From positions 2,886,638 through 2,950,637 of the forward strand of contig CAVPVV010000003.1 of NCBI GenBank assembly GCA_963709325.1: 64,000 nucleotides of DNA. Reading direction: 5' to 3'. A program made the translations under genes and the position numbers. Of this stretch, positions 3,001-24,133 are shown in pieces (the stretch's first letter is position 1; every line of letters begins with the position of its first letter). The stretch is from an uncultured Acidobacteriota bacterium. GTDB taxonomy: Bacteria; Acidobacteriota; Vicinamibacteria; Vicinamibacterales; UBA2999. The notes under the pieces were generated by a model. That model was not told the origin of the DNA, did no database searches, and saw nothing but the letters and a program-made list of their open reading frames with translations.

Positions 3001-3036
3001 ATCCGTGGCGGCAGGTTCCTGGTGTGGTGAGCTCAT
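1..3036 (-). CDS. Non-ribosomal peptide synthetase module (condensation - adenylation - start of carrier domain); 3' end lies beyond position 1
   Basis: Absent from the ORF track because it has no stop inside the window. The minus frame with first-base coordinate mod 3 = 0 is the only frame with no listed sub-ORF between 1 and 3036. ATG at 3036-3034 overlaps the TGA of the upstream megasynthase (tcat 3033-3036 = ATGA). Own translation: MSSPHQEPAATDSGPGWFLEEVVPLSPAQVEVWLASRL (C-domain N-terminal motif); AHHVVCDGWSWGV (HHxxxDG, ~2545-2585); VIYTSGSTGAPKG (A3, ~1100-1140); LPNGKVDRRSLP (A10, ~110-144); then the first residues of a carrier domain. Plus-strand ORFs 43..1002 and 626..1135 are its antisense shadow. 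Confidence 0.85.
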   Translation of the reverse strand, partial: MSSPHQEPAATDSGPGWFLEEVVPLSPAQVEVWLASRLGRYASLAFNESVEFRLRGPLDIAALAAGINQLVARHQSLRSTVDPDGAELLIAAPGSFILPIVDLSGQTSVQRATTLSQERAAAASEPFDLSQGPLFRAVCYCLGADDHLLLMTAHHVVCDGWSWGVITRDLAALYRERLGDGAAPASAARYSDYVRWASEQAANPEMADHERFWLQSLAGSASVALELPSDRARPPRRTFDSRRVDRHIRADVVSAVRRLGAQARSSLFATLFAAFAALVHRLTDQEDLVIGVPAAGQAASGMTELVGHCVNLLPIRLRAERDTPFTDFLQSVSTTVLDAFEHQALTYGTLLKKLPLGRDPSRLPLVSAMFNLDPGIRPGSNLFPGLTVECSATPRLFENFEISLNAVHVDDGIRLECQYNTGLFDERSVERWLDAYESLLESVAADPSLPLGALPWLSAGLRREVEALQPLPTDFPRSDLMYSAFVRQAASTPDRVAVSCDGRCLTYADLDRRSNQLARYLRARGLTPGDRVGLCMTRGLDTITALIGVLRAGGAYVPLDPGFPPARLAYYAADANLAFLITESHQKAAPRAWRADVAGRVINLDVNTAWLEQPMTVHPESPNDCDPETPAYVIYTSGSTGAPKGVVVPHRAVVNFLCAMAREPGININDRLAAVTTLSFDISVLELMLPLTVGAEAIIVPRETAMDGRELGLLLERTGATIMQATPGMWRSVIDAGWPGGAFKALVGGETLPPDLARVLLERSSEVWNMYGPTETTVWSAVWKVDAAVVNESGVAIGRPIANTSIWVLGPGGQPCPIGVPGEICIGGEGVTSGYFERPDLTSKRFAIDPFAAHSSSRLYRTGDRGKWRNDQLLEHQGRLDFQIKVRGYRIEPGEIEACLAEHSSIQGAVVETHEAAPGDVRLVAYIVPRQAVPEPATLRSHLRERLPDYMIPQHFVEIATLPLLPNGKVDRRSLPSPWVAVSHSTPNRVAPRNELEQVALEALESALNLAE

Positions 3037-6000: not shown

Positions 6001-9000
6001 CGGCCTCGGAACGCCACTAGCCGTGCAGCATCTTGCAACGACATGACACCGGCCACGACGGCGGCGACGAACTCGCCAACACTATGGCCAATCAGCGCGG
6101 CGGGGCGGACGTCACGCGCCTCCAGGGTTCGAGCGAGCGCATATTCGAGGCAAAAGGTGGCTGGCTGTGTCGTCGCCGTTCCCGTCAAGGCGTTGGCGTC
6201 GCCTGAAAACATCCTCGCCAAGAGATCGAAGCCCGCGTGCTTCGACGCACTCTCGGCAGCCTCGTCCAACGCGTCGCGAAAGGTTCGATCACCGTCGTGC
6301 AACCCGCGCCCCATCCCCGCGTACTGGGCACCTTGGCCCGGAAACAGCCAGATTAGGGGCGGTATTGTCGCGCCCAAGGACCGGGAGACGCGATGCCGGT
6401 GCGTCGGCTCGCTCAAGACGTCGATCGCAGCGTCGACCGAACCAGCGACAAGGGCCAACCGCTCGGGAAATCGGCTTCGTCCTTCTCTCAGTGTGTAGGC
6501 GACATCAGCGAGATTGGTATTCGGATGAGCCTTCAAGTGTTCGGCCAATTGCGCCGCCATCGTCCCGAGCGCAGAGGGAGTTCTGGCCGACAACAACAAC
6601 AACTCGGGACTGGTTGAAGGGCCGACCTCGGGTCGATGAGGACCTTCTTCTAGGACGAGGTGGACGTTAGTGCCGCCGACCCCGAAGGAGCTTACACCGG
6701 CACGCCGAGGCTCCTTCGCTCGCGGCCACGGAGTCAAAGCCGTATTGACGAGGAACGGACTGGTCGCAAAGTCGATTGCCTGATTTGGCTTCTCGAAATT
6801 CACGCTGGGCGGCAGCATCTCATGGGAAAGAGCCAGGGCTGTCTTGATCACTCCGGCCGCGCCGGCGGCGGTGACCAGGTGGCCGACGTTGCTCTTGACG
6901 GACCCGATCCGGCAAAATCCCCGATCCGGCGTCGTCCGGCGAAAAGCCCGGGTGAGCGCCTCGATCTCAACCGGGTCACCGAGCGGCGTGGCCGTGCCAT
7001 GAGCCTCGATATAGGACACAGTGCGCGGATTGATGCCTGCAGCCTCGTAGGCGGCCGCGATCCCCGCGGCCTGTCCGCTTATGCTCGGCGCCGTGAAACT
7101 AGCCTTGTCACGGCCGTCGTTGTTGACAGCCAGGCCCCGAATGACCGCGTACACCATGTCACCGTCGGCGACGGCGTCGCCCAACCGCTTGAGCAGCACC
7201 ACGGCGGCGCCGTCGCTGAACACCGTACCCTGGGCGGCTGCATCGAAGGGTCGTGTCCGTCCATCGGGGGACAGCATCGCGCCTTCCTGGTATAGATAGC
7301 CGCTCCGCGGCGGGCAGGTGATCGCAACCCCTCCGGCAAGCGCCATGTCGCATTGATGCGATCTGAGCGCCGCGAACGCCTGCGCGATCGCAACTAGGGA
7401 CGTGGAGCAAGCGGTATGCACGCTGACGGCGGGCCCGGTCAGGTTCAGTCGGCTTGCGACGCGGGTCGCGATATAGTCCTTCTCATTGGCCAACATTACC
7501 TGAAATTCACCGAGCTTCTCGATTCGATCGGGATGATAGAGAACGTGCTTCTGGTAGTAGGTCGCGTTGTACATCCCCGCGAAGATGCCAATCGGCATGC
7601 GTGCTCGGTCCGGTGCATGTCCGCCGCGCTCCAAGCATTCCCAGCAGAGCTCGAGGAAGACTCGGTGCTGCGGGTCCATAACTTCCGCCTCACGAGCCGA
7701 GATGCCAAAGAACGTCGAATCAAACCTCTCGACGTCAGCAATTACACCACGCCGCTTAACGTACGCCGGATCCGCCGTGAGCGCTGGCGGCAACGAGGGA
7801 TCAAGTTCACTGTCCTCAAAGGATGTGATCGTCTCGCGTCCGTCACGCAGGTTGCGCCAGAACTCCTCCACAGTGGTCGCGCCTGGGAACCGGCCGGCCA
7901 TCGCGATGATGGCGACCGGCTCGTCGGATGGCGCGGGCCCCTTTCGACTCCTCGCCAGGCGCCGGGATTCGACGACCGACTCGGTCCGATCGACGATTGC
8001 ACGAGCAATAGCCTCGGGAGTCGGTTCGCGGAAGAAAAGATTCGTGGACAGGCCGCTCCGGTCCGGGTCCGGTAGCCGTCCGAGAACCTTCAACACCAGT
8101 AAGGAGTCACCCCCGAGGTCGAAGAAGTTGTCGAAGCGGCCCACGCGCTCGATGCCAAGCTCGGTGGCGAATGCCGCGCAGACCCGGGCCTCGATCTCGC
8201 CAACCGGTTCCGTGTACGGCTGGATGAGATCAGGCCTCTCAATCGGCGGCGGTGGCAGCGCGCGTCGATCGACCTTCCCGTTGACCGTCCGGGGTAGCGC
8301 ATCTAACCACACATAAGTCGCTGGCACCATGAAATCGGGCAGACGCGCGGCCAGATGCGCGCGCATCTGTTCCAAGGGGACCGGCTGGTCCCTGGCGATC
8401 GCATACGCAATGAGACGATGCGTCCCATTCGCGAGCTTCTCTGGCACCACAGCGCATGCTTTGATGCCGGCATGGGCGGCGAGTTGCGCCTCAATCTCAG
8501 CCGGCTCGATGCGGAACCCACGGATCTTCACTTGATCGTCCAAACGGCCAACGAACTCGATGATCCCATCCGCGGTGCAACTGGCAAGATCGCCGGTGCG
8601 GTACAGCCGCTCCCCACGCTGATCAAAGGGATTGGCGACGAACCGCTCATTCGTCAGCTCGGGTTGCCCGAGGTACCCGCGAGCGAGGCCACGTCCACCC
8701 AAATAGAGTTCGCCTACCTGCCCAGGCTCGAGGAGCTCCATCGAAGGGCCGAGGATGTACGCCTCCGTATCGGTAATAGGACGACCGATTGGCACAGCTC
8801 GAGCCTCCGCCGGCAAATCAGCGGGAATGCGAAATGTCGTCGCGAAGGTAGTGCATTCCGTGGGCCCGTACCCATTGATCAACATGACGGCCGGTGCCGC
8901 CGCGAGGAACCGCCGCACGTGCGGCACCGATAAAGCCTCGCCGCCAATGAGAAGTTCCTTCAAGGCCGCCAAATGCGTCGGATCGTCGTCCACGACCGCA

Positions 9001-9788
9001 TTGAACAGCGCTGCCGTGAGCCAGGCCGTCGTGACGCGATGTTTCTCGATCGTGCTCCTGAGCCCGGCAGCGGTCGGGAGATCCTCGTCGTGAATGACGC
9101 ATACACCACCGTTCAAGAGTGGAGCCCAGAGTTCGAAGGACGAGGCATCAAACCCCAGTGGTGCTGCTTGCATCACGACGCAGTCCGGTCCCAGGCTCAC
9201 ATACTTCGCATCGATGACAAGCCGGAGAACGGAGTCATGGCAGATCTCGATGCCTTTGGGGACGCCGGTCGAGCCTGATGTATACATCACATAGGCAAGC
9301 GATGCACCATCGCCGGGGTCGCAGAGTTGCGGCGCGGGTGCGCTGTCCGCCTGCTCGAGCAGCAGGGTCGGCAGATGCGATGGAAAACGCTCTCGCTGGG
9401 CTGCGGTCGTGACGACCGCCGCGGTGTGCGCGTCGTTGATCATCAATGCCAAGCGGTCGGTCGGGAATGCCAGTTCAAGTGGCATATATGCGGCGCCGGC
9501 TTTCAAAGTCCCCAAAATGCAAGTGACGGCTTCGAACGAGCGAGGGACTGCGATCGCGACAGTGGATCCGGGTCGGACCCCGAGATGCAGCAGGGCCGCC
9601 GCGACGCGATCCGATCGCGCATCCAGATCGCCGTAGGTCCATTCGTGTGCACGGTGAACGAGCGCCACTCGCTGCGGACCCTCGGCAGCGACACGCCGAA
9701 AGATCTCGTGGATCATTCCCCCCTTACCGCCAGGGAGCGACGTGGTATCCCTGGCGTGCACGCGATTAGGAACCTTGGAAGCGGACAT
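3033..9788 (-). CDS. Hybrid NRPS-PKS megasynthase: A - T - KS - AT - T - class-III (GSA-type) aminotransferase
   Basis: Intact 2251-aa ORF. Motifs with approximate forward coordinates: A domain LKAGAAYMPLE, FDASSFE (~9131-9160), YTSGSTGVPKG (~9256-9290), NGYGPTE, YRTGD, GRLDDQVKIRGFRIE, NGKVDRRAL. PCP FFDLGGDSLL (~8096-8133). KS VHTACSTSLVA (~7391-7425), EAHGTATPLGDP, GSVKSNVGHL. AT FPGQGAQYAGMG, GHSVGEF (~6069-6095), SHAFHS. ACP ELGLDSL (~5040-5069). Aminotransferase NTGSEAVMAAIRIAR, FDEVITGFR, YGKVIGGGMP (~3683-3712). No KR, DH, ER or TE motifs seen. Confidence 0.93.
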   Translation of the reverse strand: MSASKVPNRVHARDTTSLPGGKGGMIHEIFRRVAAEGPQRVALVHRAHEWTYGDLDARSDRVAAALLHLGVRPGSTVAIAVPRSFEAVTCILGTLKAGAAYMPLELAFPTDRLALMINDAHTAAVVTTAAQRERFPSHLPTLLLEQADSAPAPQLCDPGDGASLAYVMYTSGSTGVPKGIEICHDSVLRLVIDAKYVSLGPDCVVMQAAPLGFDASSFELWAPLLNGGVCVIHDEDLPTAAGLRSTIEKHRVTTAWLTAALFNAVVDDDPTHLAALKELLIGGEALSVPHVRRFLAAAPAVMLINGYGPTECTTFATTFRIPADLPAEARAVPIGRPITDTEAYILGPSMELLEPGQVGELYLGGRGLARGYLGQPELTNERFVANPFDQRGERLYRTGDLASCTADGIIEFVGRLDDQVKIRGFRIEPAEIEAQLAAHAGIKACAVVPEKLANGTHRLIAYAIARDQPVPLEQMRAHLAARLPDFMVPATYVWLDALPRTVNGKVDRRALPPPPIERPDLIQPYTEPVGEIEARVCAAFATELGIERVGRFDNFFDLGGDSLLVLKVLGRLPDPDRSGLSTNLFFREPTPEAIARAIVDRTESVVESRRLARSRKGPAPSDEPVAIIAMAGRFPGATTVEEFWRNLRDGRETITSFEDSELDPSLPPALTADPAYVKRRGVIADVERFDSTFFGISAREAEVMDPQHRVFLELCWECLERGGHAPDRARMPIGIFAGMYNATYYQKHVLYHPDRIEKLGEFQVMLANEKDYIATRVASRLNLTGPAVSVHTACSTSLVAIAQAFAALRSHQCDMALAGGVAITCPPRSGYLYQEGAMLSPDGRTRPFDAAAQGTVFSDGAAVVLLKRLGDAVADGDMVYAVIRGLAVNNDGRDKASFTAPSISGQAAGIAAAYEAAGINPRTVSYIEAHGTATPLGDPVEIEALTRAFRRTTPDRGFCRIGSVKSNVGHLVTAAGAAGVIKTALALSHEMLPPSVNFEKPNQAIDFATSPFLVNTALTPWPRAKEPRRAGVSSFGVGGTNVHLVLEEGPHRPEVGPSTSPELLLLSARTPSALGTMAAQLAEHLKAHPNTNLADVAYTLREGRSRFPERLALVAGSVDAAIDVLSEPTHRHRVSRSLGATIPPLIWLFPGQGAQYAGMGRGLHDGDRTFRDALDEAAESASKHAGFDLLARMFSGDANALTGTATTQPATFCLEYALARTLEARDVRPAALIGHSVGEFVAAVVAGVMSLQDAARLVAFRGRLMQDLPAGSMLSVRLPADPLSSRLPARLCVAAENGPSASVVSGPTVDVNAFRDVLEAEGVMTRLLQTSHAFHSSMMDGAVAPFNCEVETAHLRAPQVPIISTLTGTWLTASDAIDPGYWGRHLREPVRFSGAVRNCIARHEDAAFVELGPRDTLSTLVRQHGGRRPGSIAVPCMADSPELETSQLLLALGELWTAGIEASEPATSASNLRHRIVLPTYPFERQRLWLDPPSAKSAIPHVSDAMVSISASIGNPVVPTADPDGSARLGQERTVSEPTKAPSALPIPGLIAELRGFFEDISGLDLSEADESVSFIELGLDSLVLTQAAAMLKKRFKVPITFRELMEQYRNLRDLAGHLNRLMPMEPVTAVAAVAASQGPEPGSSEALSAGPAAAQFANDQGESPIQQVIRQQMELMSQQLALLASVSLDRPSQIGSGTGRPSLAAAGSEAQPAATVPHSMRTADDLRQVRYDVKKAFGAIARIHTEANALTDRQKARFDAFVKRYVAKTVQSKAYASEHRGHLADPRTVNGFRPITKEITYQIVMERSQGARMWDVDGNEYVDALNGFGVNLFGWRPDFVTDAIRSQLDTGYDIGPQHPLAGEVARLVCEMTGFDRAALCNTGSEAVMAAIRIARTVTGRSTVVLFAGSYHGTFDEVVVRGGRGGKAIPGAPGIMAGMFGDVRVLEYGSPEALEYIHAHADDLAAVLVEPVQSRRPEFQPVEFLKQLRAATQRCGVCLIFDEVITGFRLHQGGVQAMFGVNADLASYGKVIGGGMPIGVVAGRRDFMDALDGGSWQFGDDSIPTVGVTYFAGTFVRHPLALAAAKATLVHLKAAGGTLQTTLNRTTETMVRELNAFCKRVGAPISVSHCGSLWRVAWLEDHPFQDLLFAMMRSRGVHILDNFPCFMTTAHGAGEVDVMVSAFKNSIAELQEGGFLPTRVEPTEAMDRSRPPVADARLCRDNEGKPAWFVPDGKAPSKYSKYDPAKVAAKA

Positions 9789-12330: not shown

Positions 12331-12380
12331 TTCGCCAGTCAGCGCGCTCGAGTCGGTCATCCGGCGGGGGCAGAACCAGG

Positions 12381-13254
12381 ATGAGGTATTCAAGGATTCG
12401 GAGCATAGTCGACAAGCTCGAGCGAATACCGGTAATCCGCAGCCGTCGCCGAGCAGCCGTCGAGCGCCGCTTCGAAAACAACACAAACCAGAATCTGTTC
12501 CGAGGCGTGTACGAGTCGTTTACCGCAGCGTTGGCTTCAGCACCGACAACGCGTCCCCTCGGTTACGACAATCCTGAATCGGCTGACCTGTATCTTAATC
12601 GGCTGTGGGTGGACGATTACGATTACCCCTCCATCTTCTGGCTTGCGGACGGGATCACGAACGGGATGAGGAGGATAGCGGATCTCGGAGGTTCAGTGGG
12701 AATCAAATACTTGGCGTTCCGACGGATCACAAGATTCCCAGAGGACATCGCGTGGCGTGTCATCAGAGGTACCGGCGGTCGCCGATCGCGGTCGCCGGCT
12801 CGCTGCTGAAAGCGCGACTGCCAGTGTGCTGCAATTCTCGACCGACACCGACGCCGCCGATGGCTCAGACGTGCTCTTCGCGTCAGGTTCGTTGCAGTAC
12901 CTTCCTACGTCGTTGTCAGATATCCTGGCGCGTCTGAAACAGAAACCGCGACGGTTGATTGTCAATACCGTCCCGATTCATCCGACTGACAGCTTTTTCA
13001 CGCTGAACAGCATCGGCACGGCGTATTGCGCGTACCGGGTACAAGCTCGAGCCCCGTTCGTGACCTCGATAGAAGCGCAGGGCTATCGAATGCGCGATCA
13101 ATGGAGAAATCTCGGCAAGACCATGATCGTACCGTTCGCACCGTCACTGAGTCTTGATCACTATTCAGGTTTCTGCTTCGACCGGTTCGACGACGCTCTC
13201 GCTGCCGACAGGCCCACGCTGTTGAGCGGCTCTAAAACTGACAGTTGTCGGTGA
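12381..13254 (+). pseudogene. TIGR04325-like putative methyltransferase, interrupted by one frame change near 12760
   Basis: ATG at 12381. N-terminal part (ORF 12240..12809, frame 0): MRYSRIRSIVDKLERIPV...NLFRGVYESFTAALASAP..GYDNPESADLY...AWRVI. It continues in frame 1 (ORF 12757..13254): EVPAVADRGRRLAAE...LFASGSLQYLPTSLSDILARLKQKPRRLIVNTVPIH. Joined length of about 290 aa fits the family. The shift is equivalent to one extra base. Confidence 0.6.
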
Positions 13255-13264
13255 AAATCTGATA

Positions 13265-13289
13265 GCCGGCAGCGCGGTCAGGCTGCCGG
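13265..13289 (+). terminator. GC-rich hairpin downstream of the methyltransferase gene
   Basis: Perfect 9-bp stem gccggcagc (13265-13273) / gctgccggc (13281-13289) with a 7-nt loop, 11 nt after the stop at 13252-13254. No T-tract follows. Confidence 0.35.
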
Positions 13290-13389
13290 CTGCGAGCTCC
13301 TGGCCGGTGATTCCACCAGGATGCGTTCCCCACAAGCGGAAGCGCGATGTTCGAACGGAGACGCGGATGCTACTCAGGCATTACCTCGA

Positions 13390-13600
13390 GCTCGGTAAGA
13401 GCAACAGCGCCTGGCGCGAGGCCGCGCTACGCGCTGCTGGTCGTGCTCGGGTGCTCGCGGCTGTTGTGGCGTCGTTTCGCGCCGCGTCAAGATATGCGCA
13501 CGCTGCTCACCGCGCTCGAGGAGGCGTTCCTGGACGGGCCGCGTGAGATCGTGCTCCCCAACTTGCTCGAGTCGGACCTCGGGGCCGAGACCTCGGCTCG
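13390..13600 (+). mobile_element. Relic of an IS21-family (IstA-like, DDE/rve) transposase gene
   Basis: Frame of ORF 13347..13754 reads RYALLVVLGCSRLLWRRFAPRQDMRTLLTALEEAFLDGPREIVLPNLLES. This resembles the IstA core pattern (..V.VLGYSR..Y..F...Q....LL.CH..AF..FGGVPREILYDN.K). Only about 70 aa are recognisable. No start, no intact ORF and no inverted repeats were identified. Confidence 0.45.
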
Positions 13601-13648
13601 CGATTCGGGGGTGGCGAACCCGGTACGGCGGTGTCGGGGCGGGCTCGC

Positions 13649-14530
13649 TCATGCTCCGGAGTCGGAGACAGGGTGTTCGGTGAGGCGCTTTCGTCCTACG
13701 ATCACCCTAGCGGTACCGGCGGCATCGTACATCGCCACGACCGGCGCGTCGTAGTGGCGGGCGCGCCCAAAAAGAAGTGTCACTTGGCGGTCCTGGCCGG
13801 CACCAATCTCGAACAGTAGATGTCCGCCAGGCTTGAGGAACGGCACGGCGTCGCGCAAGACGCGTTGGAAAATCGAGACGCCGTAGGGCCCTCCGTCGAA
13901 CGCCTCGCGTGGCTCGTGCACCAACAGCTCGGCGCGTGCGTTCGATAGTTTGCCGGTCGAGATGTACGGGGGATTGCAGACCACGATATCGATCGTACCC
14001 TCGAGCCCTCGCTCGCCGAGTGGCTCGAACAAATCTCCTTGCAATACGGTGACTCGTCCGCCAAGCCGAAGGTGTTCGACGTTGGCGCGCGCTACCTCAA
14101 CCGCACCGTCGGTAAGGTCCGATGCCCACACCTGAAGCGTTGGATGATTTGCCGCCAGCGCACAGGCGAGATTTCCGGATCCACAGCACATATCGATGGC
14201 GCGCAGGCGGGTCGAGGAGTCGCAGGAGTTCAGCAACTCGAGCGAGGTGCGCGCCAGTAGCTCCGTCTCTTCCCGCGGAACGAGGGCGCCCGGCGCCACG
14301 ATGAGGTCCACACCCATGAACCGCGGTCCTTCCGGTGAGATAGGCGAGCGGGCGTCCCGGCGACGCGTTCGGCAGCCAACTCGAGAGCCCGTGAGGCAGA
14401 GGCCTCCGGCACCGACCTGGCGAATGGCGGCTTCCAGGAGGCGTATCGCTTCGTCGGTCGGGTCCGGCCATTCCGGCGGCGGCAAGGAGCCGCACGATTC
14501 GTCCACGGGGCCTTGCGGAGGGAGACTCAT
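13649..14530 (-). CDS. PrmC/HemK-like N5-glutamine-type SAM-dependent methyltransferase
   Basis: ATG 14530-14528 overlaps the TGA of the upstream ligase (ATGA). C-terminal 200 aa: DLIVAPGALVPREETELL, AIDMCCGSGNLACALA (SAM motif I), DIVVCNPPYI (NPPY motif). The frame is open throughout, but the conserved GRPLAYLTGR segment is readable only in other frames at ~14290-14410 (see findings). Confidence 0.7.
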   Translation of the reverse strand: MSLPPQGPVDESCGSLPPPEWPDPTDEAIRLLEAAIRQVGAGGLCLTGSRVGCRTRRRDARSPISPEGPRFMGVDLIVAPGALVPREETELLARTSLELLNSCDSSTRLRAIDMCCGSGNLACALAANHPTLQVWASDLTDGAVEVARANVEHLRLGGRVTVLQGDLFEPLGERGLEGTIDIVVCNPPYISTGKLSNARAELLVHEPREAFDGGPYGVSIFQRVLRDAVPFLKPGGHLLFEIGAGQDRQVTLLFGRARHYDAPVVAMYDAAGTARVIVGRKRLTEHPVSDSGA

Positions 14531-16091
14531 GACAGGCCGGTCTTCTTGATCTTTCCGGTCGTGGTCTTCGGCAGCTCGGCGATGATCTCGACGAACTTCG
14601 GCACCATGAAATTCTCGAGCCGCTTGCGCACATTCACCGAGAATGTCGCGTTCCGTCACGGTCGAGCCGGCATCGAGCACGACCAGTGCCTTCACCGCCT
14701 GTCCGAGGATATCGTCCGGGACACCGATCACCGCGACTTCCCTGACGCCCGGTGATGTTGACGATGACGCTCTCCACTTCTTTCGGCGCGACCTTCTCGC
14801 CACGCGACTTGATGATGTCGTCCATCCGTCCGACGAAATACAGGTAGCCTTCTTCGTCGAGCTTGCAGTAGTCACCGGTGTATAGCACCATCTCGCCCGG
14901 CAGCGGCCCGGGACGCAGTTTCCTGGCCGTTTCTTCGGGCTTCTCCCAGTAGCCGCGCATCACGGTGGCGCCTCGGATCACGAGCTGCCCGACTTCTCCT
15001 GGACCGACGCGCTCGTCTCTGCTCGTTGACGATCCAGAGCTCCGTGTTGGGAATCGGCACTCCGACCGAGAGCGGCTTGCGGTCGATGTCTTCGGGAGGC
15101 AGATAGGTGCAACGCTTGCACTCCGTCAGCCCATACATCGAAAAGACCTTGGCGCTTGGGAAACATCCGGCGAAGCATGTCGATGTGCTTGGTCGACAGC
15201 GCCGCCGCGGTGTTCGAGACGTAGCGAATCTTCGAAAAGTCGTACTGTTCGATATTTCGAAGGCCGCCGAGAATCGCGAAGATCGTCGGAACGCCCGGAA
15301 ACCCGGTGACCCCTTCGTCGACAACACGCCTTCAGGACTTCGGCCGGATAGGTGAACGAGCGCTCCAGGACGAGCCGTGCACCGACCCGGAAGGCCATGA
15401 TCATCTGATACAGCCCGTAGTCGAACGAGAGCGGCAGCAGGCCGACGATCACGTCGTCCTCTACGTTCTCGAGGTAGGTGCTTACCGACGTGGCCGCGGT
15501 CAGCATGTTGCGATGCGTCAGCATGACGCCCTTGGGATCGCCCGTGCTGCCCGACGTGTAGATGATCGACGCCAGATCGATGTCGATGCTTCGTCGCGGC
15601 GGCGGCGCTGCAACAGGGCCCTCGCCGAGCGCAGCTTCCCAACCGACGACCTCCGCTACCGCGCCGAGCCGCGACCAGCTCCATCGGACCGGACACGACC
15701 GCCGCCGACGAGATGTTCTGCCTTCTGCGACGGCGGGGACCAGCGTCGAAGCCAGGTGCGCGTCGCTGATGATCGCCCGGGCCCTGCAGTCGTTGAGCAG
15801 ATAGGCCAGCTTGTCCTCCTTGGTCTGTGGATTGACCATCGACACGACCGCATTGGCCTTCAGCACTGCCCAGAACGAGACGACGGCTGCAACCGTGTTG
15901 TCGGCAAAGACGACGACGCGGTCGCCGCGCCGCACGCCGCGTCGCACCAGCGCGTGGGCCAGGGCATTCGATTGGTGATTCAGCTCGGCGTAGGTGAGAC
16001 GCTGACCCTGACAGACCAGGGCCACCTTGTTCGGCAGGCGCTCCGCCGAGTGAATCAGGTAGTCGTGTAGCTGGGGGATACCGTTGTGCAT
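14527..16091 (-). pseudogene. Acyl-CoA ligase (AMP-forming), exosortase-system-associated type; at least 5 frame changes
   Basis: Recognisable pieces in successive frames. MHNGIPQLHDYLIHSAERLPNKVALV...IIYTSGSTGDPKGVMLTHRN...ERSFTYPAEVLK (frame 2). VVDEGVTGFPGVPTIFAILGG...STKHIDMLRRMFPK (frame 1). KVFSMYGLTECKRCTYLPPEDIDRKPLSVGVPIPNTELWIVNE (frame 0). DERVGPGEVGQLVIRGATVMRGYWEKPEETA...YTGDYCKLDEEGYLYFVGRMDDIIKSRGEKVAPKEVE (frame 2). VREVAVIGVPDDILGQAVKALVVL (frame 1). KRLENFMVPKFVEIIAELPKTTTGKIKKTGLS-stop (frame 0). Confidence 0.8.
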
Positions 16092-16094
16092 ATC

Positions 16095-16986
16095 GAGGAG
16101 ACACCGGAGAGGCGAGGTCGCGCGAGAGCGCGACAGCCGCGCCGTCCCGAGCACCTCGCGTGACCGTGCCGAACCGAAACTCGCGCAGCAGCCGGCGTAG
16201 CCGCGCCTCGGTCTTGTTCAGATTGTAGTAATGCCGTAGGCGCGACGCAGCGCCAACGCGGATTCGTGGCTGGTGCGGGTCAATCTCCCACGGATGAAGA
16301 TAGAAGATTGCCGGGCATTGCTCGGCGTCATTCAGAGCCTTCATCCCGCCTGCCTCGTCCAGTCGTAGGGCAGCAACCGAAAGTAACCGCCGCCGCCGAA
16401 CGGCAGATTGACACCCGCCCGTCGAATCGTGGACCCCGGAAGTTCCCAGATGCTGCCGTCCACCCGTTCGACGCATTCGATGTGCCTGGACCAGGCGGGA
16501 ATCCCGTATCGATCGTGGCGGATCGGATAGATGCTGCAATCGTACCTGTAGCCCTCGCTCACGAGCACGTCGAAGCGCCCAGAGCGATCGCTCGGTAATC
16601 GAGAAGCTCGGTGCTCTGATACCCGTAGATGCGCGATCGCCGGCCGCGTTTTCGATGGCCGACCTGGCGCGCCACAAATCGAGCGCGGAATGCCTCCGGC
16701 GTGCTGTCGTACACGAGGCCGTGCTCGTGGCTGTGCGACGCCAGTTCATGACCGGCGCGGTGAATGCGCTGCACGAGTTCGGGAAATCGTTCCGCGACCC
16801 ATCCCAAGACGAAAAACGTGGCATGGACGCCGGCGTGCTCGAAGATGCCAAGCAGCCTGTCGGTGTTCTGGCAGACCCGGCTCTCCATCGACTCCCACTC
16901 GGACCGACGTACACAACCTGGCGAACGCCGATACCTGAAAGTAGTCTTCCACGTCGACGGTAAGGGCGTTCAGGATCGTGGGTCAT
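16095..16986 (-). pseudogene. Polysaccharide deacetylase, PEP-CTERM-locus subfamily; multiple frame changes (3' boundary approximate)
   Basis: ATG at 16986. Pieces: ILNALTVDVEDYFQVSAFA; SMESRVCQNTDRLLGIFEHAGVHATFFVLGWVAERFPELVQRIHRAGHELASHSHEHG; IENAAGDR..GIRAPSFSITERSLWAL; VSEGYRYDCSIYPIRHDRYGIPAW...LPFGGGGYFRLLPY; KALNDAEQCPAIFYLHPWEIDPHQPRI...RHYYNLNKTEARLRRLLREFRFGTV. These lie in frames 0>2>1>0>2>0. Confidence 0.75.
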
Positions 16987-16988
16987 CA

Positions 16989-18397
16989 CTACGACCCGCT
17001 TCGCACGAGCACTGTCTTGACGGTCTCGATCACGATGAACAGGTCGAACGCGATCGACTGGTGCTTGATGTAGTAGAGGTCATACTGCAGCTTCTGAAGA
17101 GCATCGTCCACCGACGAACCGTAGCAATGCCGGACCTGTGCCCACCCGGTGACGCCGGGCCGGACGACGTGGCGCTGTCCGTAAAACGGGATCTGCGTGC
17201 TCAGATCCGGCCACGAACTCGGGTCGCTCCGGGCGTGGCCCGACGAAGCTCATCTCACCAATCAGGACGTTCCACAACTGCGGAATCTCGTCGAGCCGGG
17301 TCCGGCGCAAGAACCGTCCGACCTGCGTCACGCGCGGGTCGTCTGCGGTCGCCCAGACGGCGCCACTGACAGCCTCGGCGTCCACCCGCATCGATCGAAA
17401 CTTGTGAATGGTGAAGGTCGTCGCCGTCCTTGCCGACCCGGCGCTGGCTGTAGAGGATCGGACCTGGTGAGGTGGCTCGAAGTGCCACGAGCCACGAGCC
17501 ACCATGACCGGGGCGGCGAGGATCAAGCCGATCGAGGCCAGCACGACGTCGAAAGCGCGCTTGACCGCCTGCCTGCGTCGCGCTCTTGCGGAATCCTTCT
17601 GAAAAAATCATCCAGCTCGGTCGCAGGTTCTCGACGGCGATCTTCCCGGTGTACTGCTCATAAACGGAGGCAAGATGGTCGAACCGCACACCCTGATTCA
17701 GCCTCATGTCGAGCAGCTCGTCCATGTTCAGTTTGCCCCGCGCATCGGCAAGGCTCACGACGACGCGATCGACCCGCCGGTGACGGACGATGCCCGGAAT
17801 GTCGCTGATGGTACCGATCACGCCGGGGATTGATCACCGGAGTGCCGACCAGGGCGGGGTCGGCATCGACGAACCCGACGATCTCGGCACCGAGCTCCGC
17901 TGCGGCGTTCGAAGATTTCCCGGGCCAGCGCTCACCGCCGCCTGACCGGTTCCGACGATCAGAAGGCGCTCTCGTCGGGCCGACCGCGAATGGACCACCA
18001 CTCGAACGTCAACCGCCATCCGGCAATGAGACCGATGATCGGAAGGGATGCGATGGCGACAACCCCGCGGCCGATGACAAGGGCCGGGATCAGATAATAC
18101 AGAAGGGCTAAAATCACCGATGCTGCCCCAAGTGCCCGCAGCAGCCCAGTGAAGAGGTCGCGGCGCTCGGACAGCGCACGCAGGTCGTAGAGATCGCAAT
18201 AATGTAGGCAGACCTGCAGCACCACCGCGACCAACATGGCGCGCCCGACCAGCTCGGTCACGGCCACTGCTGGCGTGTCGCGGCATGCTGAGGCTGACCA
18301 CGGCCGCGCCGAGCACGGCCACGACGATCAACCCGTGCTCGACGAGCACCAGGGCAATCCACCGTCCGTTGAGGTTGCCAGCCAACGGCCCTTGCAT
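16989..18397 (-). pseudogene. Polyprenyl-phosphate glycosyl-phosphotransferase (bacterial sugar transferase, PEP-CTERM-system EpsB-like); multiple frame changes
   Basis: Pieces: MQGPLAGNLNGRWIALVLVEHGLIVVAVLG; AVTELVGRAMLVAVVLQVCLHYCDLYD...; RLLIVGTGQAAVS; LAREIFERRSGA; ELGAEIVGFVDADPALVGTPVINP; VIGTISDIPGIVRHRRVDRVVVSLAD...; [14 protein letters not shown]; [16 protein letters not shown]; [15 protein letters not shown]...[29 protein letters not shown]; [20 protein letters not shown]...[31 protein letters not shown]-stop (TAG at 16989-16991). One shift sits in a G4 run at 17825-17828 where CCC GGC is expected. Confidence 0.8.
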
Positions 18398-19307
18398 CAG
18401 AGCCTCTTGCTCTTCGGGTCGGGGACTGCCGTAATAGCCGTAATATGCGATTTCGTCTTCGCGAGCGACGCCGTTGAGCACCACGCCCGAGGATCCGATC
18501 TCGCCCGAGGCCGTCGATTGCCCTCTGGACGGCGCTGAATTGTGTTTTCCCGGCGTGAACGACGAACAGCGTGCCGCCGACCATCTCCGTGAGCAGGTGC
18601 GGCATCGGCGGTGGCTCCTACAGGAGGGGAGTCGAGGATCACCCAATCGAACCGAGTGATGGCCTCGCTCAGAATCTGCCGCATGCGCGGAGACGTACAG
18701 GGCCTCGAGTGAATTGGCGATCGGCTGCCCGGCCGGCAGCAACGTCAGACGGGGCGAGAGATTGATGAGCGCGAGCCTCTGTTCCGTCGTAGCCACAAGC
18801 GCGTCACTGAGCCCGCAGCCCGCAGTCGGATCGATGACACTCGGGGATGGACGGACGTCGAAGATCAGCATCCACGAGCAGCACGCGGGCGCGATACGAT
18901 TCAGCCAGCACGAAGGCGACGTTGATGGCGGTGAGGGTCTTGCCGTCGCCAGGCATCGCGCTGGTCACCATCACACTGCGTAACCCGTTCGCGGCTTGGG
19001 CATGATGGAGCACACCGGCCAGTCGGCGGAACTGTTCGACCAACGCCGGGTCCCCCTCCGAGCCGCTCGCCAGACACTCCCGCCACTTGGAGGAAAAACC
19101 CTGCACGCCGGCACTAGCCACCATCGGACCGGCGTCCGGTAGCAGTGCGAGTTTTCGAGCGGCGGATGGTGCGGGCTCCTCCTCTGGCCGGTCCGGCCCG
19201 TTCTCGGGCCATGCCGACGTAAAGTGCCGCTGCCCGTCCGGGCTGGATTCTCCCGCCTTCCGGCCGACCTCGTCGACGCGTCGTAGCGCTTCGTGGATTC
19301 GACTCAC
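18397..19307 (-). pseudogene. Exopolysaccharide-locus P-loop ATPase / BY-type tyrosine autokinase-like protein; about 4 frame changes
   Basis: GTG at 19307. Pieces: MSRIHEALRR...SVMVTSAMPGDGKTLTAINVAFVLAESYRARVLLVDADLRRPS (Walker A and A'); VIDPTAGCGLSDALV...LTLLPAGQPIANSLEAL; MRQILSEAITRFDWVILDSPPVG (Walker B); LLTEMVGGTLFVVHAGKTQFSAVQRAIDGLGRDRILG; VVLNGVAREDEIAYYGYYGSP (Tyr cluster). Frames run 2>1>0>2>1. Confidence 0.8.
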
Positions 19308-19317
19308 ACGTTCTCCA

Positions 19318-20925
19318 TCATGTCAGGCTGTTCCAAAGCTTCAGAGTCCACGTGACGTAGCAGACCCCGAAGAGGCAGACCGCTCCTGCGACGGAGAGCC
19401 ACAGAGTTCGGCGCCTGCGCTGGGCACGGACGGCAGTCGTTGCGATATAGGGCACACTGGCCAGTACCGGCAAGCCCAGCAAATCGACGATCTCGGCGTT
19501 GGTGCGAAAAGACTCGTCCCTGTACCTCGAGTAGCGCAGCGATGCCGAGTCCGAGTAAGAGTCCGAGCGCGAGCCCGCCGGCGTTGATCTTGCGGCGAAT
19601 CGATGGTCGCGGGTGGACCGGCACCCCCGCCGGATCGACGATGCGGAAGTGCTCGCCGATCTGTTGCTGCTCGAGATCGACGGCAACTTTTGACGCCTCG
19701 CTCTTCGAGAGCAGGTCCTTGTACGCCAGTTGCTGTGTTTCGTAGTCCCGGGTCAGCGCCGCCCATTCGGATTCCAGGCCGGGCACGGCTTCGATGCGGC
19801 GCTGGTATTCGCCGATCTCATCACGCACTCGACGTTCCTCCGATTCCTTGAACGCGATTTGCCGAGACAGGCTCTCGATCTCGGCCGTCATCTGCCCCAG
19901 CCGTTCGCGCCGTCGGATTTCGGCGTCGGATGCGCCACGCCGGAACTTCCGGTGTGGCGCCCGCGGCTTCCGCGGCGACCTGTGCTTCGAGAGTCGCAAT
20001 CAGACGCTTGGTTCGCCGAATGTCCGGATGATCGGGTTTGTAGCGGAGTTCGAGGTTCGCGAGTGTCGCGCGCGCGGTTGCCAGCTGCTGCGAAGTGGAC
20101 GCCTCTGCAACCACGGTCCCGCTCGCGCCGCGGGGGTTGGCCAGCCGGCATCGGGGCGGCTGGCAATGGCGTTTCAACCGCATCGTTGTACAAGCGCTCG
20201 AGCATCTGCTTGCGATCGCGATCGCGTGCGAGCGATTCGTTCATCGACTGCAGTTGCATCTGCGCATTCATGTTCGCCTGCATATTGGTCTGCATCTGCG
20301 TCGGCAGTTCCTTGCCATGGCGTTGACGAAACGCCTCGAGCCGGCTTTCCTGAATTTCGAGGCGCTGACGCGCGTCGGCGAGCTGCGTCTCGAGGAAGCG
20401 ATTGGTGGACTCGGCACGCGCGCTACGGTCCTGGACGTTCTGTGCCACGTACAGCGATCCGAGCTGCTGGGTCACCTCCGCGGCGATCCGCGGATCCGGG
20501 TGGGTAAAGCGCACGTGAAACGCGTGAGGCCCTCCTTCACGTCCTTGGCTCCGCTCCAGCTCCACGAAGATGTTCTTCCTCATCAGCGCCGACGACGTCC
20601 TCGATCGGCAGAACCTGACGCTGTTCAGGATAGAGATCGACGGCTTCTCGATGATTCGTTCGAGGGAGGTTCGGCTCATCACCTGGACGGAGATGGCATC
20701 CATTCGCAGTTCGGTCCCGAGCGTCACGGTGGATCGCACGAAATTGTCCGGGACTCGTTGCGGGTCGATCGCAATCAGCATGTCGGACTCGTACAGGTTC
20801 GGCACCCGCGACGACCAGAGCAGCGCGGCGAACAAGGTGACGATCGGCGGAAGCACGATCAGCCATCACCGTCGTCTCGCCATCTGCAACACGTCAACCG
20901 GCGTGAACGTTTTTCCAGGCAACAT
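19318..20925 (-). pseudogene. Polysaccharide chain-length determinant (Wzz-like, PEP-CTERM-locus type); in-frame TGA plus 3 frame changes
   Basis: ATG at 20925. MLPGKTFTPVDVLQMARRR-TGA(20868-20866)-WLIVLPPIVTLFAALLWSSRVPNLYESDMLIAIDPQRVP... (frame 0). STSQQLATARATLANLELRYKPDHPDIRRTKRLIATLEAQV (frame 2). RRERLGQMTAEIESLS...ESEWAALTRDYETQQLAYKDLLSKSEASKVAVDLEQQQIGEHFRIVDPA...GLGIAALLE (frame 1). YRDESFRTNAEIVDLLGLPVLASVPYI...stop at 19318-19320 (frame 0). Confidence 0.8.
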
Positions 20926-20935: not shown

Positions 20936-22288
20936 CTAGACGATGCCGTAGAGTGGCAACCAGAAGGAGAGTCCGACCCGCACCGAATGACGGTCGTAGC
21001 GAGCGGGATATCCGGTCGGGGTACTCGAGATTTCCAACAACCGATGTCTGTAGAAGTTGTAGCCAACGAACAGGCCGCACCATCGCGCCATCGCGTACTG
21101 CACCTGAGCCGTGGCACCCGTGGCCTCGAAGGATCCCGTGTCGGTCGCGAGTCCGGCACCTCTGGAGATTGCGCCGGACACCCCGACACTGACCCGCTCG
21201 GCCATAACCCCCGCGATTTGCAAAGACCCGACATTGGTCGCGAAGGGCTCCGGTGACAAGCCTTCGAGCACCGTCACCGTCCGATCAAATCCCGCTGAGA
21301 CGTTCCAGTAACGAGCCAGGTCGAGGCGAGCCGTGGCGGCGGCAATCGGAACCCAATACGTTTGGAGGGCCTCACGTTCCGCGTCGGCCCCCGGTGCCGC
21401 GGCCGGTCTCACGCGGGCGTAGGAAGCCCCGCCGCCGAAAGTGAAAGTGGCGCCTCGCGTAGGCGAGATCCGTCGTTCGATCTGCACACCGGTATCGGCC
21501 GTGTGGGTCTGAACCGGCTGAAGAATCAGAGTCTGATCGGTCTGCTGGCTTTCGTTGTAGCGATAGGAGAATTGGAATCCGCCGTTGGGGTGCGGGTTCC
21601 ATCGATGTCGGACCGAGGCGGCCTGTGTCCGACTGCGGGTGCCAGGGCCTGTCCTCGGGTCCCTCACCGCCGCCGCATAGAGGAGGTCCATGCGTTGCCG
21701 CGGCGTCCAATGTCGGTAAACGTCTACAGAACCCCGTCCCGCCAGCCACTGCTGTTCGACGACGCCCTGTGGCGCAGTGCCGTCGGGCATCACGCTCTGG
21801 GCATTCGGTCCGACGAGCGGTCCGAGCGCGCTGAACAATACGCTGGGTTCGTAGGCAGCTCCCCCATCGAACGTGATCCCGGCGCGGCGACCGAGTTGCG
21901 TTTCGCCGCGTACATGCGTGTTTCCACCGCTAAGGCGTGTGTCGGTGGCGTACAGTTGATTGACGAAGCCGCCGCCCGACATCTCGAAGGAATGGCCGGT
22001 TCGCCCACGCCAGAAATCCGCCGCTACCTCCCCGGTGGTTGCAAATCCGTTCTCCAAGGGGTTGACCGTGCCGATCGGACGCCCATCCGACCCGACAGTC
22101 GTATCGTAGCCGCTGCCGAGGTTGAACGTGACAGTGAATTCCTGTGAGGTCCGGTTTGGATCGCGAACGTGCCCCCCAAACAGCCCGCCGAGCTCGCGCG
22201 GTGGCCGATCGACCACCTGCGCGAACGCCGGCGACGCGGTAGTCGTCAGCAGCAGCGACACGACAAATTGGGAGAGCGAGGACTTCAT
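20936..22288 (-). CDS. Putative outer-membrane beta-barrel protein of the EPS locus
   Basis: Intact 450-aa ORF with signal peptide MKSSLSQFVVSLLLTTTASPAFAQ. Gly/Tyr/Arg-rich amphipathic alternation is typical of beta-barrels. Its position between the Wza-like and chain-length genes matches PEP-CTERM-type loci. Confidence 0.65.
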   Translation of the reverse strand: MKSSLSQFVVSLLLTTTASPAFAQVVDRPPRELGGLFGGHVRDPNRTSQEFTVTFNLGSGYDTTVGSDGRPIGTVNPLENGFATTGEVAADFWRGRTGHSFEMSGGGFVNQLYATDTRLSGGNTHVRGETQLGRRAGITFDGGAAYEPSVLFSALGPLVGPNAQSVMPDGTAPQGVVEQQWLAGRGSVDVYRHWTPRQRMDLLYAAAVRDPRTGPGTRSRTQAASVRHRWNPHPNGGFQFSYRYNESQQTDQTLILQPVQTHTADTGVQIERRISPTRGATFTFGGGASYARVRPAAAPGADAEREALQTYWVPIAAATARLDLARYWNVSAGFDRTVTVLEGLSPEPFATNVGSLQIAGVMAERVSVGVSGAISRGAGLATDTGSFEATGATAQVQYAMARWCGLFVGYNFYRHRLLEISSTPTGYPARYDRHSVRVGLSFWLPLYGIV

Positions 22289-22304
22289 ACCAGTACCATC
22301 GAGG

Positions 22305-22934
22305 CTACGGAACGACGACGGTGTCCCCGGGTTTGAGTTGGATGTTCTGCTCCAGACTTCTGCCCTTGGAAATCTCCTTATAGTTGACTTTCAAGCTCTT
22401 CGTGGCGCCGTTCTCCTCGCGTACTACCGTGATGCTCTTGGCGTCGGCATACTCGGTGAGACCACCTGCGAGCGCAATCAACTGGAGGACGGTCCGAGGT
22501 CCCGTCAGCGGATACGTTCCGGGAGTTGTCACACGGCCGGTGATGAACACCTTTCTGCTGTTAATCGTCCGGACGACAACCGCCACGTTCGCGTCGCTGA
22601 CGTATTTGCCGGCCGCGGTCAGGATTCGCGCCTTCAACGCCTCGGGACGGAGGCCTGCAGCCTCGATTTCGCCAATGACCGGAAGACTGATTCGACCGTC
22701 AGGTCGGACAGTCACGTCTCCGCTCAGGTCCGGCTCGCGCCAGAACACCACCCCGAGGACGTCTTCCGGTCCGATGACATAGTCCGGTGGAAGCTCGACT
22801 CCTGTCGGTACCTGTCGACTCTCCGCCGCCGGTTGCGTCGCGAGTGGTCGCTCGGCATCGGCCTGGGCCGCCCGCGTCGAGCCGCAGACCGCAAGCGCCA
22901 GTGTGAGCACAATTGCGCAGAATGGTAGGTTCAT
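22305..22934 (-). CDS. Polysaccharide export protein (Wza/EpsE-like periplasmic component)
   Basis: ATG at 22934, 6 nt after the stop of the upstream gene (22940). Signal peptide MNLPFCAIVLTLALAVCG. Poly_export pattern YVIGPEDVLGVVFWREPDLSGDVTVRPDGRISLPVIGEIEAAGL. SLBB-like FITGRVTTPGTYPLTGPRTVLQLIALAGG. The 136 codons upstream in the track ORF (to 23342) overlap the preceding gene and look non-coding. Confidence 0.85.
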   Translation of the reverse strand: MNLPFCAIVLTLALAVCGSTRAAQADAERPLATQPAAESRQVPTGVELPPDYVIGPEDVLGVVFWREPDLSGDVTVRPDGRISLPVIGEIEAAGLRPEALKARILTAAGKYVSDANVAVVVRTINSRKVFITGRVTTPGTYPLTGPRTVLQLIALAGGLTEYADAKSITVVREENGATKSLKVNYKEISKGRSLEQNIQLKPGDTVVVP

Positions 22935-22939
22935 GACAT

Positions 22940-24133
22940 TTAAGAGAAGAAGGAGAACCGGCCTTTCTTGGGTTTCAAGGAGCTGAACATCAGTCCCTCC
23001 TCGCCGTCGGCGGTCGCGGGAGCGCGAGGCGGAATCTGGTTTGGTGCGGCCAGTCGTTCGTTCGGCTTCACGGGTGGAGCTGTATTCCCCGCAGGCAGGT
23101 CGAAGTCCCGACAGACCTCCTTGATCACATCCACAGGAATCGGTTTGACTTGCGACGCGAAGCCGCCCAGAAGCGCGTTCTCGCAGAGCACGTTGATCGT
23201 TCGCGGGATACCTGAGGACGTTTCGAAGATGGCGACGACCGTCTCGCGCGTGAAGATCTGGCTGGGCGATCCCCCAGCGATGCGGAGTCGCCCAGAAATA
23301 TACGCCGCGGTTTCCTGGAGGTTGAGAGCTCCGAGCTGACAACGCAGCGCGATCCGTTGCTTGAGCTGCCGTAACCCGGTGTCGTTCAACCGGTCTGCCA
23401 GCTCGGGTTGGCCTGACAAGACGATGTTGAGCAGCTTCGCCGTGGCCGTCTCAATATTGCCGAGGAGCCGGATTTCCTCCAGCAACTCGTGAGGCAGACT
23501 CTGTGCCTCATCGATGATCAGGCCCGACAGTCCCCCGGCTGCGAATCGCGCCTCGACATCCCGCTTTAACGCAGAAAGGAAACGGGGTTTCGACACGGCA
23601 GCTTCTTCGCCCAGACCAAATTCTCGCGCCAGATGCTCGCAAAACTCGGCGCGAGTAAGGGTCGGATTGTTGACCATCACGTACCGACTCGCGCTTCCGC
23701 CGAGTTCCGCCAAGGCGGTCCGAACCAGCGTCGTTTTCCCTGTTCCGGCCTCCCCAAGTATCAGGGTGAATCCCCTGGATGTCGCGAGCGCATACCGCAG
23801 ATTGCTGAGGGCCTCGCGCTGACGCTCCGACAGGAACAAGAATCGCGGATTCGGGGTGAGATCGAATGGCGATTCTGCAAGGCCATAGAACCCGCCATAG
23901 AGAGGTTGGCGTACGCCGACTAAACCGCCTTCATCCCAAGGCTCACGTGGCCAGCCAGGCGTCGTGACCCGGAGATCCGAACGGCGGGGCGCGTCAGCCT
24001 GGGCGCGGTTGGTTGGTTGCGCTTCCGGTGCATTTCGCGGATCGCTAGTGGTCATGGTCGAAGCGGGCTGCCACCAAGGCTGTGCAAATGGAGCACCCGC
24101 GCCTTGACAAGCCCCATGTTGGGGCGTAAACAT
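22940..24133 (-). CDS. ExeA-like AAA ATPase (PEP-CTERM/XrtA-system-associated ATPase type)
   Basis: 397-aa ORF. FYGLAESPFDLTPNPRFLFLSERQREALSNLRYAL, Walker A LILGEAGTGKTTL, Walker B GLIIDEAQSL, LSGQPEL. Alternative start at 24055 (MTTSDPR). Confidence 0.85.
   Translation of the reverse strand: MFTPQHGACQGAGAPFAQPWWQPASTMTTSDPRNAPEAQPTNRAQADAPRRSDLRVTTPGWPREPWDEGGLVGVRQPLYGGFYGLAESPFDLTPNPRFLFLSERQREALSNLRYALATSRGFTLILGEAGTGKTTLVRTALAELGGSASRYVMVNNPTLTRAEFCEHLAREFGLGEEAAVSKPRFLSALKRDVEARFAAGGLSGLIIDEAQSLPHELLEEIRLLGNIETATAKLLNIVLSGQPELADRLNDTGLRQLKQRIALRCQLGALNLQETAAYISGRLRIAGGSPSQIFTRETVVAIFETSSGIPRTINVLCENALLGGFASQVKPIPVDVIKEVCRDFDLPAGNTAPPVKPNERLAAPNQIPPRAPATADGEEGLMFSSLKPKKGRFSFFS

Follow-up and report, generated by a model that had tools for sequence, protein, structure and literature searches.

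Does the 64-kb window analyzed here (the whole stretch of DNA) hold an exopolysaccharide (EPS) locus that is decaying, or one whose consensus sequence is wrong? An annotation taken at face value would give seven pseudogenes, and a first, sequence-only reading of the window had left both options standing.

Extent and sign of the lesions

Seven genes are broken between 12,765 and 20,868, by ~44 frame-breaking lesions and one in-frame TGA. Six of them belong to a Vicinamibacterales XrtA/PEP-CTERM exopolysaccharide locus; the other is a plus-strand TIGR04325 methyltransferase. The frame changes can be seen in a listing of stop-free segments and in the GC3 profile, and a codon-phase HMM, which is homology-free, gave 6–8 switches per 2 kb at 12–20 kb vs 0–4 elsewhere. 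Frameshift-aware protein-to-DNA alignment against the proteins of an intact relative (L007) was used for event counts and yielded five in the chain-length determinant (plus the TGA), four in the kinase, 11 in the sugar transferase, nine in the deacetylase, eight in the ligase, and four in a HemK-like methyltransferase. The kinase count is five by DNA alignment to an environmental contig, L001. Each frame-breaking lesion adds sequence, mostly +1 and in a few cases +2, with no deletion among them (sign test, p ∼ 1e-13). The repeated frame changes reported by the sequence-only reading, nearly every one equal to one inserted base, were found where it had placed them and in larger number than it had listed. 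It had described the TGA at 20866 as the sole non-indel lesion.

Event positions, rates, and the phase HMM delimit a dense tract (14,321–20,868, no strand assigned) with ∼43 events in 6.5 kb. Spacing is Poisson-like at about one event per 150 nt, an insertion error of ∼0.7% for the patch. The 12,765 event is isolated, with ∼1.1 kb of testable coding sequence free of events up to the dense tract (P ∼ 6e-4). The interval 12760–20925 originally proposed has lesions at both ends, but only 14,321–20,868 is dense. The borders ignore gene structure: the tract starts 57 nt within one gene and ends ∼200 nt within another. As controls, three genes that lie upstream in this locus (minus strand, 20,936–23,902; a 450-aa OMP at 20936–22288, Poly_export, and AAA_22) were examined, and each has zero frameshifts. 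At the tract's rate, the probability of zero events over these ∼3 kb is ∼3.5e-9. The long genes elsewhere in the window had been described as free of frame changes, and no frame-breaking lesion was found in them. With same-locus upstream genes spared, an outside gene included, and borders that fall within genes, the suggestion that the cause is regional, and not selection acting on a single pathway, is borne out.

Lesions and corrected products of the individual genes

The XrtA-system chain-length determinant (TIGR03007-like; minus strand, 19,318–20,925; 1608 nt here) carries, by DNA alignment to L001, extra bases at 20650–20649 (+2), 20588, 20131, 19939, and 19524, and the in-frame TGA lies at 20866–20868. 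Deletion of six bases gives exactly 533 aa, and the corrected protein spans TIGR03007 positions 7–495 of 498. No exact match to it was found in the protein collection with seven variants of the TGA codon. In the earlier gene-wise list the +2/+1 pair (20650, 20588) had been missed and the remaining coordinates were off by 50–170 nt, the real positions being 20131, 19939, and 19524. The XrtA-associated tyrosine autokinase (minus strand, 18,397–19,307; TIGR03018 positions 8–207 of 207) has extra bases at 18842, 18696, 18603, 18489, and 18409, the last of these absent from that list.

In the TIGR03013 priming sugar transferase (minus strand, 16,989–18,397; corrected protein 469 bits, profile positions 12–442 of 443), extra bases were located at 18285, 17981, 17976, 17929, 17900, 17824, 17567, 17501, 17490, and 17212. 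One of these had been taken for an extra G in a G4 run at 17825–17828; the run is equally long in L001, and it is the C beside it, at 17824 on the plus strand, that is extra. A further +1 at ∼17,419 is common to the window and L001. The XrtA-system polysaccharide deacetylase (TIGR03006; minus strand, 16,055–16,992; corrected protein 379 bits, profile positions 1–271 of 272) has exactly placed extra bases at 16983, 16913, and 16684, and events placed within a few nt at ∼16637, 16631, 16617, 16576, 16356–16355 (+2), 16159, and 16138–16130.

The exosortase-A-associated acyl-CoA ligase (TIGR03098-like; minus strand, 14,527–16,091; profile positions 2–514 of 517) has extra bases at 15729, 15706, 15679, 15330, 15154, 15021, 14754, and 14630, of which the first three are additions to those originally listed. 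The corrected 518-aa ligase is 89% identical to its L007 counterpart. Frameshift-aware alignment of the HemK/PrmC-like methyltransferase of the EPS locus (minus strand, 13,649–14,531) revealed four events that had also been overlooked, at ∼14454, 14399, 14352, and 14324, with no lesion from 14320 to the stop; the source's own annotation of this gene holds just a truncated 222-aa product (P0125). Outside the EPS locus, the TIGR04325 (LIC12133-type) methyltransferase (plus strand, 12,380–13,254) has a single extra base at ∼12765, in the context TC[A]GAG. Its NCBIfam profile is matched at 1–98 in one frame and 99–234 in the next, which corresponds to one +1 and agrees with the single change first noted near 12760. 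Between 16,670 and 12,760, lesions could be placed only against a relative of 70–89% identity.

Removal of the extra bases restores seven predicted full-length conserved genes. Corrected lengths vs the relative are 533/533, 466/466, 308/307, 518/518, and 281/280 aa, and the corrected proteins match TIGR03007, TIGR03018, TIGR03013, TIGR03006, and TIGR03098 end to end in NCBIfam. Two lie above the cut-off (TIGR03013, 469 vs 393; TIGR03006, 379 vs 276). For the other three the profile is the best match yet scores below its cut-off (TIGR03007, 269 vs 279; TIGR03018, 148 vs 231; TIGR03098, 483 vs 592). Gene order equals that of intact XrtA/PEP-CTERM loci of Vicinamibacterales such as L007, which share with the window AAA_22, Poly_export, OMP, chain-length determinant, kinase, sugar transferase, deacetylase, ligase, and HemK-like methyltransferase. 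The window's locus ends at the HemK-like gene, whereas that of L007 goes on with p285, CapK, p373, and MT257, none of which had a match within the window. No exosortase was found in the window by tblastn with a frameshift-damaged query, a weak test. A short IS21/IstA-like remnant (plus strand, 13,340–13,560), recognized by eye in the translations only and without a match in a Pfam search, separates the truncated EPS locus from the side of the biosynthetic gene cluster (BGC).

Independent sequences, insertion contexts, and selection

L001 is 96% identical to the window over 20756–16670 and lacks 22 of the 23 window lesions in the 4.1 kb that it covers. DNA alignment over this stretch shows 28 extra bases in the window and zero in L001, and protein-guided alignment gives two lesions in L001 vs 23 in the window. 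L001 has an unbroken kinase ORF of 301 aa and a chain-length gene with a 4-bp deletion of its own. A Logan contig from ERR15459706 encodes 450-aa and 209-aa flanking proteins identical to those of the window and an intact chain-length gene (533 aa) of 1602 nt vs 1608 nt in the window, and this 6-nt difference equals the six extra bases found in the window. The short-read locus of L007 has no such frameshifts. These comparisons indicate that the bulk of the extra bases is specific to this assembly. Both the frameshift-aware alignment and the comparison with the orthologous locus of relatives had been proposed by the sequence-only reading; they placed the events, and in the stretch that L001 covers the extra bases were absent from it, with the one exception at ∼17,419. 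Searches for close relatives gave a best identity of 67% among GTDB species representatives and 74% among JGI metagenomes, and queries with the methyltransferase and the sugar-transferase C terminus found no relative above 84% besides the source's own truncated call.

The inserted base equals a neighboring base in five of 29 well-placed insertions, so 83% are non-homopolymer events. The expectation is 47% for random insertion (p ∼ 0.001) and 27% for a "doubled call" model (p ∼ 0.15). Insertion slots are spread evenly over codon phase, and inspection by eye of 23 contexts found no common motif of the kind that restriction, NHEJ, or methylation might leave. Homopolymer slippage was rejected, as 83% of events are outside runs, and simple random in silico spiking is disfavored because inserted bases avoid matching their neighbors (p ∼ 0.001).

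The dN/dS of the corrected window genes vs L001 is 0.149, which places these genes under strong purifying selection. Outgroup polarization assigned four conservative derived amino-acid changes to the window and 22 to L001 (∼1,340 codons). Relaxed selection in the window lineage should have raised dN/dS and left a surplus of derived nonsynonymous changes; neither was seen. The dS vs L001 varies along the locus from 0.02 to 0.28.

The +1 shared with L001 (minus strand, 17,415–17,425) falls at the same residue, 325, in both sequences: the site reads GGC GAC GAC C TTC in the window and in L001, and GGC CAG ACG TTC in L007. Downstream of it dN/dS is 0.17. Judged from these alignments, an error confined to the window does not account for this lesion.

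Weighing the explanations

On the sequence evidence, the tract is very probably a technical artefact, an insertion-biased consensus error in one patch of a long-read metagenome assembly (a single contig of 4.6 Mb), and not gene decay; the first of the two readings originally put forward was favored by every test run. Support comes from the insertion-only sign, the non-homopolymer contexts, the lack of a substitution load, and the absence of the extra bases from two independent environmental sequences, together with borders that ignore genes, clean flanking genes of the same locus, and analogous contig-wide errors in L097. The latter, an ENA contig with a Flye-style name, has 28 of 31 frameshift events of +1 or +2 over its whole 12.5 kb. 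The usual residual error of Nanopore data is dominated by deletions and homopolymers; the insertion-only pattern seen here is atypical and counts against an artefact, as do the TGA, a substitution outside the proposed error mode, the 17,419 +1 common to the window and L001, the 4-bp deletion in L001, and the missing exact match to the corrected chain-length protein.

We infer that the patch was backed by very few or conflicting reads, perhaps because coverage dipped or because strains vary at the junction beside the IS remnant, and that consensus or polishing settled disagreements between reads by adding a base instead of choosing one. Such a step would produce insertions only, with a base usually unlike its neighbors and no substitution errors. 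Known indel errors of long-read assemblies (IDEEL-type tests; proovframe repair, PMC12818350) likewise split conserved genes and vanish against independent sequences. They are worse at low coverage, for example in soil metagenomes, whose long-read assemblies contain more frameshift errors than higher-coverage gut data sets (PMC13087279). The window differs in that the errors form one ∼6.5–8 kb patch in an otherwise clean 64 kb and are exclusively insertions, mostly off homopolymers, whereas those commonly described are homopolymer-length errors.

That this clone has very recently lost its EPS genes to pseudogenization, through an IS-associated truncation, loss of selection, and the accrual of real insertions, is quite improbable. 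The locus is indeed truncated after the HemK-like gene, without the p285, CapK, p373, and MT257 of L007; the 17,419 frameshift is common to L001, which has its own 4-bp deletion; and there is the nonsense TGA at 20866–20868. Decaying pathways in bacteria, for example in host-restricted or niche-shifted lineages, likewise show several adjacent broken genes, here near an IS remnant. Bacterial indel spectra, however, are deletion-biased and concentrated in homopolymers. Zero deletions vs ∼44 insertions, 83% of them non-homopolymer, is the opposite, and ∼44 neutral indels should bring hundreds of substitutions, where the window has four conservative amino-acid changes and a dN/dS of 0.15. Unlike decayed pseudogenes, the window thus shows no deletion bias, no homopolymer preference, and no surplus of substitutions or nonsynonymous changes, and its lesions are missing from near-identical environmental sequences. 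The locus's own upstream genes carry no lesions, a gene that does not belong to the locus has one, and the chain-length gene is intact in a population with identical flanking proteins. Of the 23 lesions in the stretch covered by L001, one (17,419) occurs in L001 as well and the others do not. The second original reading, recent decay, is thus unsupported for the bulk of the lesions by spectrum, dN/dS, and independent sequences.

A collapsed strain mixture, in which both alleles of a real SNP between co-assembled strains ended up next to each other in the consensus, is a sub-variant of the artefact and no biological rival; it is quite improbable. It would be insertion-only by construction, the inserted base is mostly unlike its neighbors, the window sequence looks "ancestral," like a population consensus, and divergence from L001 is uneven along the locus (the dS range given above). 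The even spread over codon phase speaks against it, and 11 of 21 slots fit a synonymous allele, a share close to a random ∼47% (estimated, not simulated) and below what would be predicted from real differences, 69% of which are synonymous; most of the implied allele pairs, assigned by hand, would be transversions. SNP doubling between strains was rejected as the main cause, the codon-phase and synonymous-allele tests being at chance level, and doubling of random read disagreements is possible. Expression despite the extra bases, by programmed ribosomal +1 frameshifting, transcriptional slippage, or RNA editing, is exceedingly improbable. Purifying selection is strong upstream and downstream of the lesions alike, the stretch past 17,419 included, and all shifts have a single sign. 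The sites lack a slippery motif, homopolymer, stop, or rare codon (contexts judged by eye), and 22 of the 23 lesions in the stretch covered by the 96%-identical L001 are absent from it, which means that selection was measured on a lineage without them. To our knowledge, 44 recoding sites in 8 kb would be unprecedented in bacteria. More broadly, it is very improbable that some or all of the extra bases are real, in a lineage that tolerates +1 shifts in EPS genes via recoding or that underwent a localized insertion-only mutational process. The sole positive hint is the 17,419 +1, found in two sequences 4% apart and followed by a frame under purifying selection.

With a consensus artefact preferred, the XrtA/PEP-CTERM EPS genes of the organism itself, AAA_22 to the HemK-like methyltransferase, are most likely all intact, with 17,419 as a possible exception, and the face-value picture of a decaying EPS locus beside a BGC is almost certainly false. 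The practical yield is a list of bases for removal and a signature by which this error class can be recognized without reads: every event an insertion, contexts outside homopolymers, no load of substitutions, and borders that ignore genes. Otherwise clean megabase-scale long-read contigs can conceal kilobase patches with ∼0.7% insertion error. Genuine lesions could amount to at most the 17,419 frameshift and possibly the TGA. The 4-bp chain-length deletion peculiar to L001 suggests that some real damage to the locus in this species is possible.

The exopolysaccharide locus and its frame changes

The window has a high GC content (0.60–0.70) and carries on its minus strand, from 23,902 to 13,649, an XrtA/PEP-CTERM-type exopolysaccharide (EPS) locus of a member of the Vicinamibacterales (Acidobacteriota). 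The encoded products are, in order, AAA_22, Poly_export, a 450-aa outer-membrane protein (OMP), a chain-length determinant, a tyrosine kinase, a TIGR03013 sugar transferase, a TIGR03006 deacetylase, an acyl-CoA ligase and a HemK-like methyltransferase. The same order is seen in the loci of intact relatives, e.g., L007. Repeated frame changes are visible in the stop-free segments and in GC3 phase, and a homology-free codon-phase HMM gave 6–8 switches per 2 kb within 12–20 kb and gene-sized segments elsewhere.

L007 proteins were aligned to the window with a purpose-written frameshift-aware protein-to-DNA aligner. Each upstream gene had 0 frameshift events; there were 5 (plus a TGA) in the chain-length gene, 4 in the kinase, 11 in the sugar transferase, 9 in the deacetylase, 8 in the ligase and 4 in the HemK-like gene, with the extra bases in the window in every case. 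The plus-strand TIGR04325 methyltransferase gene, beyond 13,650, is broken by its NCBIfam match at profile position 98/99 and therefore has one +1 at ~12,765. With the extra bases deleted, the encoded proteins have the same lengths as the relative's and align with their family models from one end to the other. The sequence-only reading, which had proposed a frameshift-aware alignment, is confirmed in its observation of dense, same-sign frame changes; its list was essentially right, if incomplete. The extra G it placed in a G4 run is an adjacent C at 17,824, and the run length is unchanged. The corrected acyl-CoA ligase (14,527–16,091) is 89% identical to that of L007 and the neighboring proteins just 58–81%; the ligase is unusually well conserved relative to the rest of this locus.

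Two environmental contigs offer independent comparisons. L001, a Logan contig from run ERR11571146, aligns to 20,756–16,670 with 96% identity, and each of the 28 gap columns marks an additional base in the window. Four of these (20,417/20,415; L001 ~330) in fact belong to a 4-bp deletion in the L001 chain-length gene, since the window keeps its reading frame at this point; the relative is itself not lesion-free. Protein-guided alignment of this interval gave 2 lesions in L001 versus 23 in the window. A second Logan contig (run ERR15459706) was compared through its encoded products and gene spans. Over a total of 659 aa, its Poly_export and OMP products do not differ from those of the window. 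Next, after a 10-nt gap as in the window, comes an intact chain-length gene (1,602 nt, 533 aa). The window copy spans 1,608 nt and contains exactly 6 extra bases.

Origin of the extra bases

The sequence-only reading allowed either insertion-biased consensus error or recent decay of the locus. We strongly favor a technical artifact, and genuine decay now seems improbable. Between the corrected window and L001 there are 91.5 synonymous and 41.5 nonsynonymous differences (dN/dS 0.149); with L007 as outgroup, four derived amino-acid changes (K>R, I>L, V>I, G>A) fall on the window lineage versus 22 on that of L001. Had about 44 indels built up neutrally, a much larger number of substitutions would be expected, the majority of them nonsynonymous. 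In bacteria, natural indels show a deletion bias and lie mostly in mononucleotide runs. No deletion occurs among the window's events, and the inserted base is the same as a neighbor in only 5 of 29 well-placed insertions, against the 47% expected for bases placed at random (p ~ 0.001). The tract starts 57 nt into the chain-length gene and stops about 200 nt into the HemK-like gene; upstream, 3 kb of genes belonging to the same locus are free of events (P ~ 3.5e-9), and a gene outside the locus is also affected. Since substitutions, sign, contexts, boundaries, spared upstream genes and outside gene all disagree with it, decay, whether selection-driven or neutral, is a misfit.

As to the artifact, insertion slots are spread evenly among the codon phases, the composition of inserted bases is that of the background and event spacing is roughly Poisson, at about one per 150 nt (the last two being hand estimates). 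Neighbor-matching bases are avoided, which fits a model where a disagreeing call is retained next to the called base; the match rate under this model would be 27%, and the observed rate is 17%. A test of whether actual SNPs between strains gave rise to the disagreement was negative. Uniform slots, Poisson spacing, neighbor avoidance and this negative test together suggest a patch that would have been thinly or inconsistently covered, within which the consensus step may have favored adding bases. The TGA at 20,866–20,868 is a substitution, which the proposed insertion mode does not produce; the chain-length gene of the ERR15459706 contig reads through this position.

The extra-base error mode occurs in public data. 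L097 (ENA ERZ25039541 'contig_147676', 280 kb), a long-read contig, carries a homologous EPS locus from another organism, with 31 frameshift events in four genes, 28 of them +1 or +2; the short-read L007 locus is clean. The L097 locus is shredded almost wholly by extra bases, and its phase switches span the whole 12.5 kb (L097:1–12,513). More frameshift errors are reported for long-read soil metagenome assemblies (PMC13087279), and frameshift repair is in routine use (PMC12818350). Besides a single shared frameshift, the main interest of the tract lies in quality control.

A shared frameshift and uneven divergence

That +1, at ~17,419 in the TIGR03013 sugar transferase (17,415–17,425, minus strand; L001 ~3308–3314), occurs at one and the same residue in the window and in L001: both read GGC GAC GAC C TTC versus GGC CAG ACG TTC in L007. 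The downstream frame has a dN/dS of 0.17 (16 synonymous versus 9 nonsynonymous differences) and is still subject to purifying selection. The insertion may be a genuine frameshift, either polymorphic or ancestral, or a systematic error common to both sequences. A recoding site is the least likely option, with no slippery motif evident at ~17,419, and recoding of the tract genes is very unlikely.

Synonymous divergence between the window (20,756–16,670) and L001 varies more than tenfold (kinase 0.02, chain-length 0.05, sugar transferase 0.15, deacetylase 0.28), which suggests recombination between strains.

The end of the locus

Past the HemK-like gene, the EPS locus stops abruptly at a short IstA-like remnant, recognized by eye only (beyond 13,650, within 13,250–13,700). 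The p285, CapK-like, p373 and methyltransferase genes that come next in the L007 locus are absent from the window. IS-mediated truncation or another real rearrangement may account for the end at ~13,650, or it may be a join made during assembly. Beyond it, on the BGC side, are a cupin-like gene and a GDSL hydrolase. An intact, 2,251-aa FAAL-KS-AT-ACP-aminotransferase megasynthase (3033–9788, minus strand), with an iturin/mycosubtilin-like loading architecture, adjoins the tract in this Vicinamibacterales genome.
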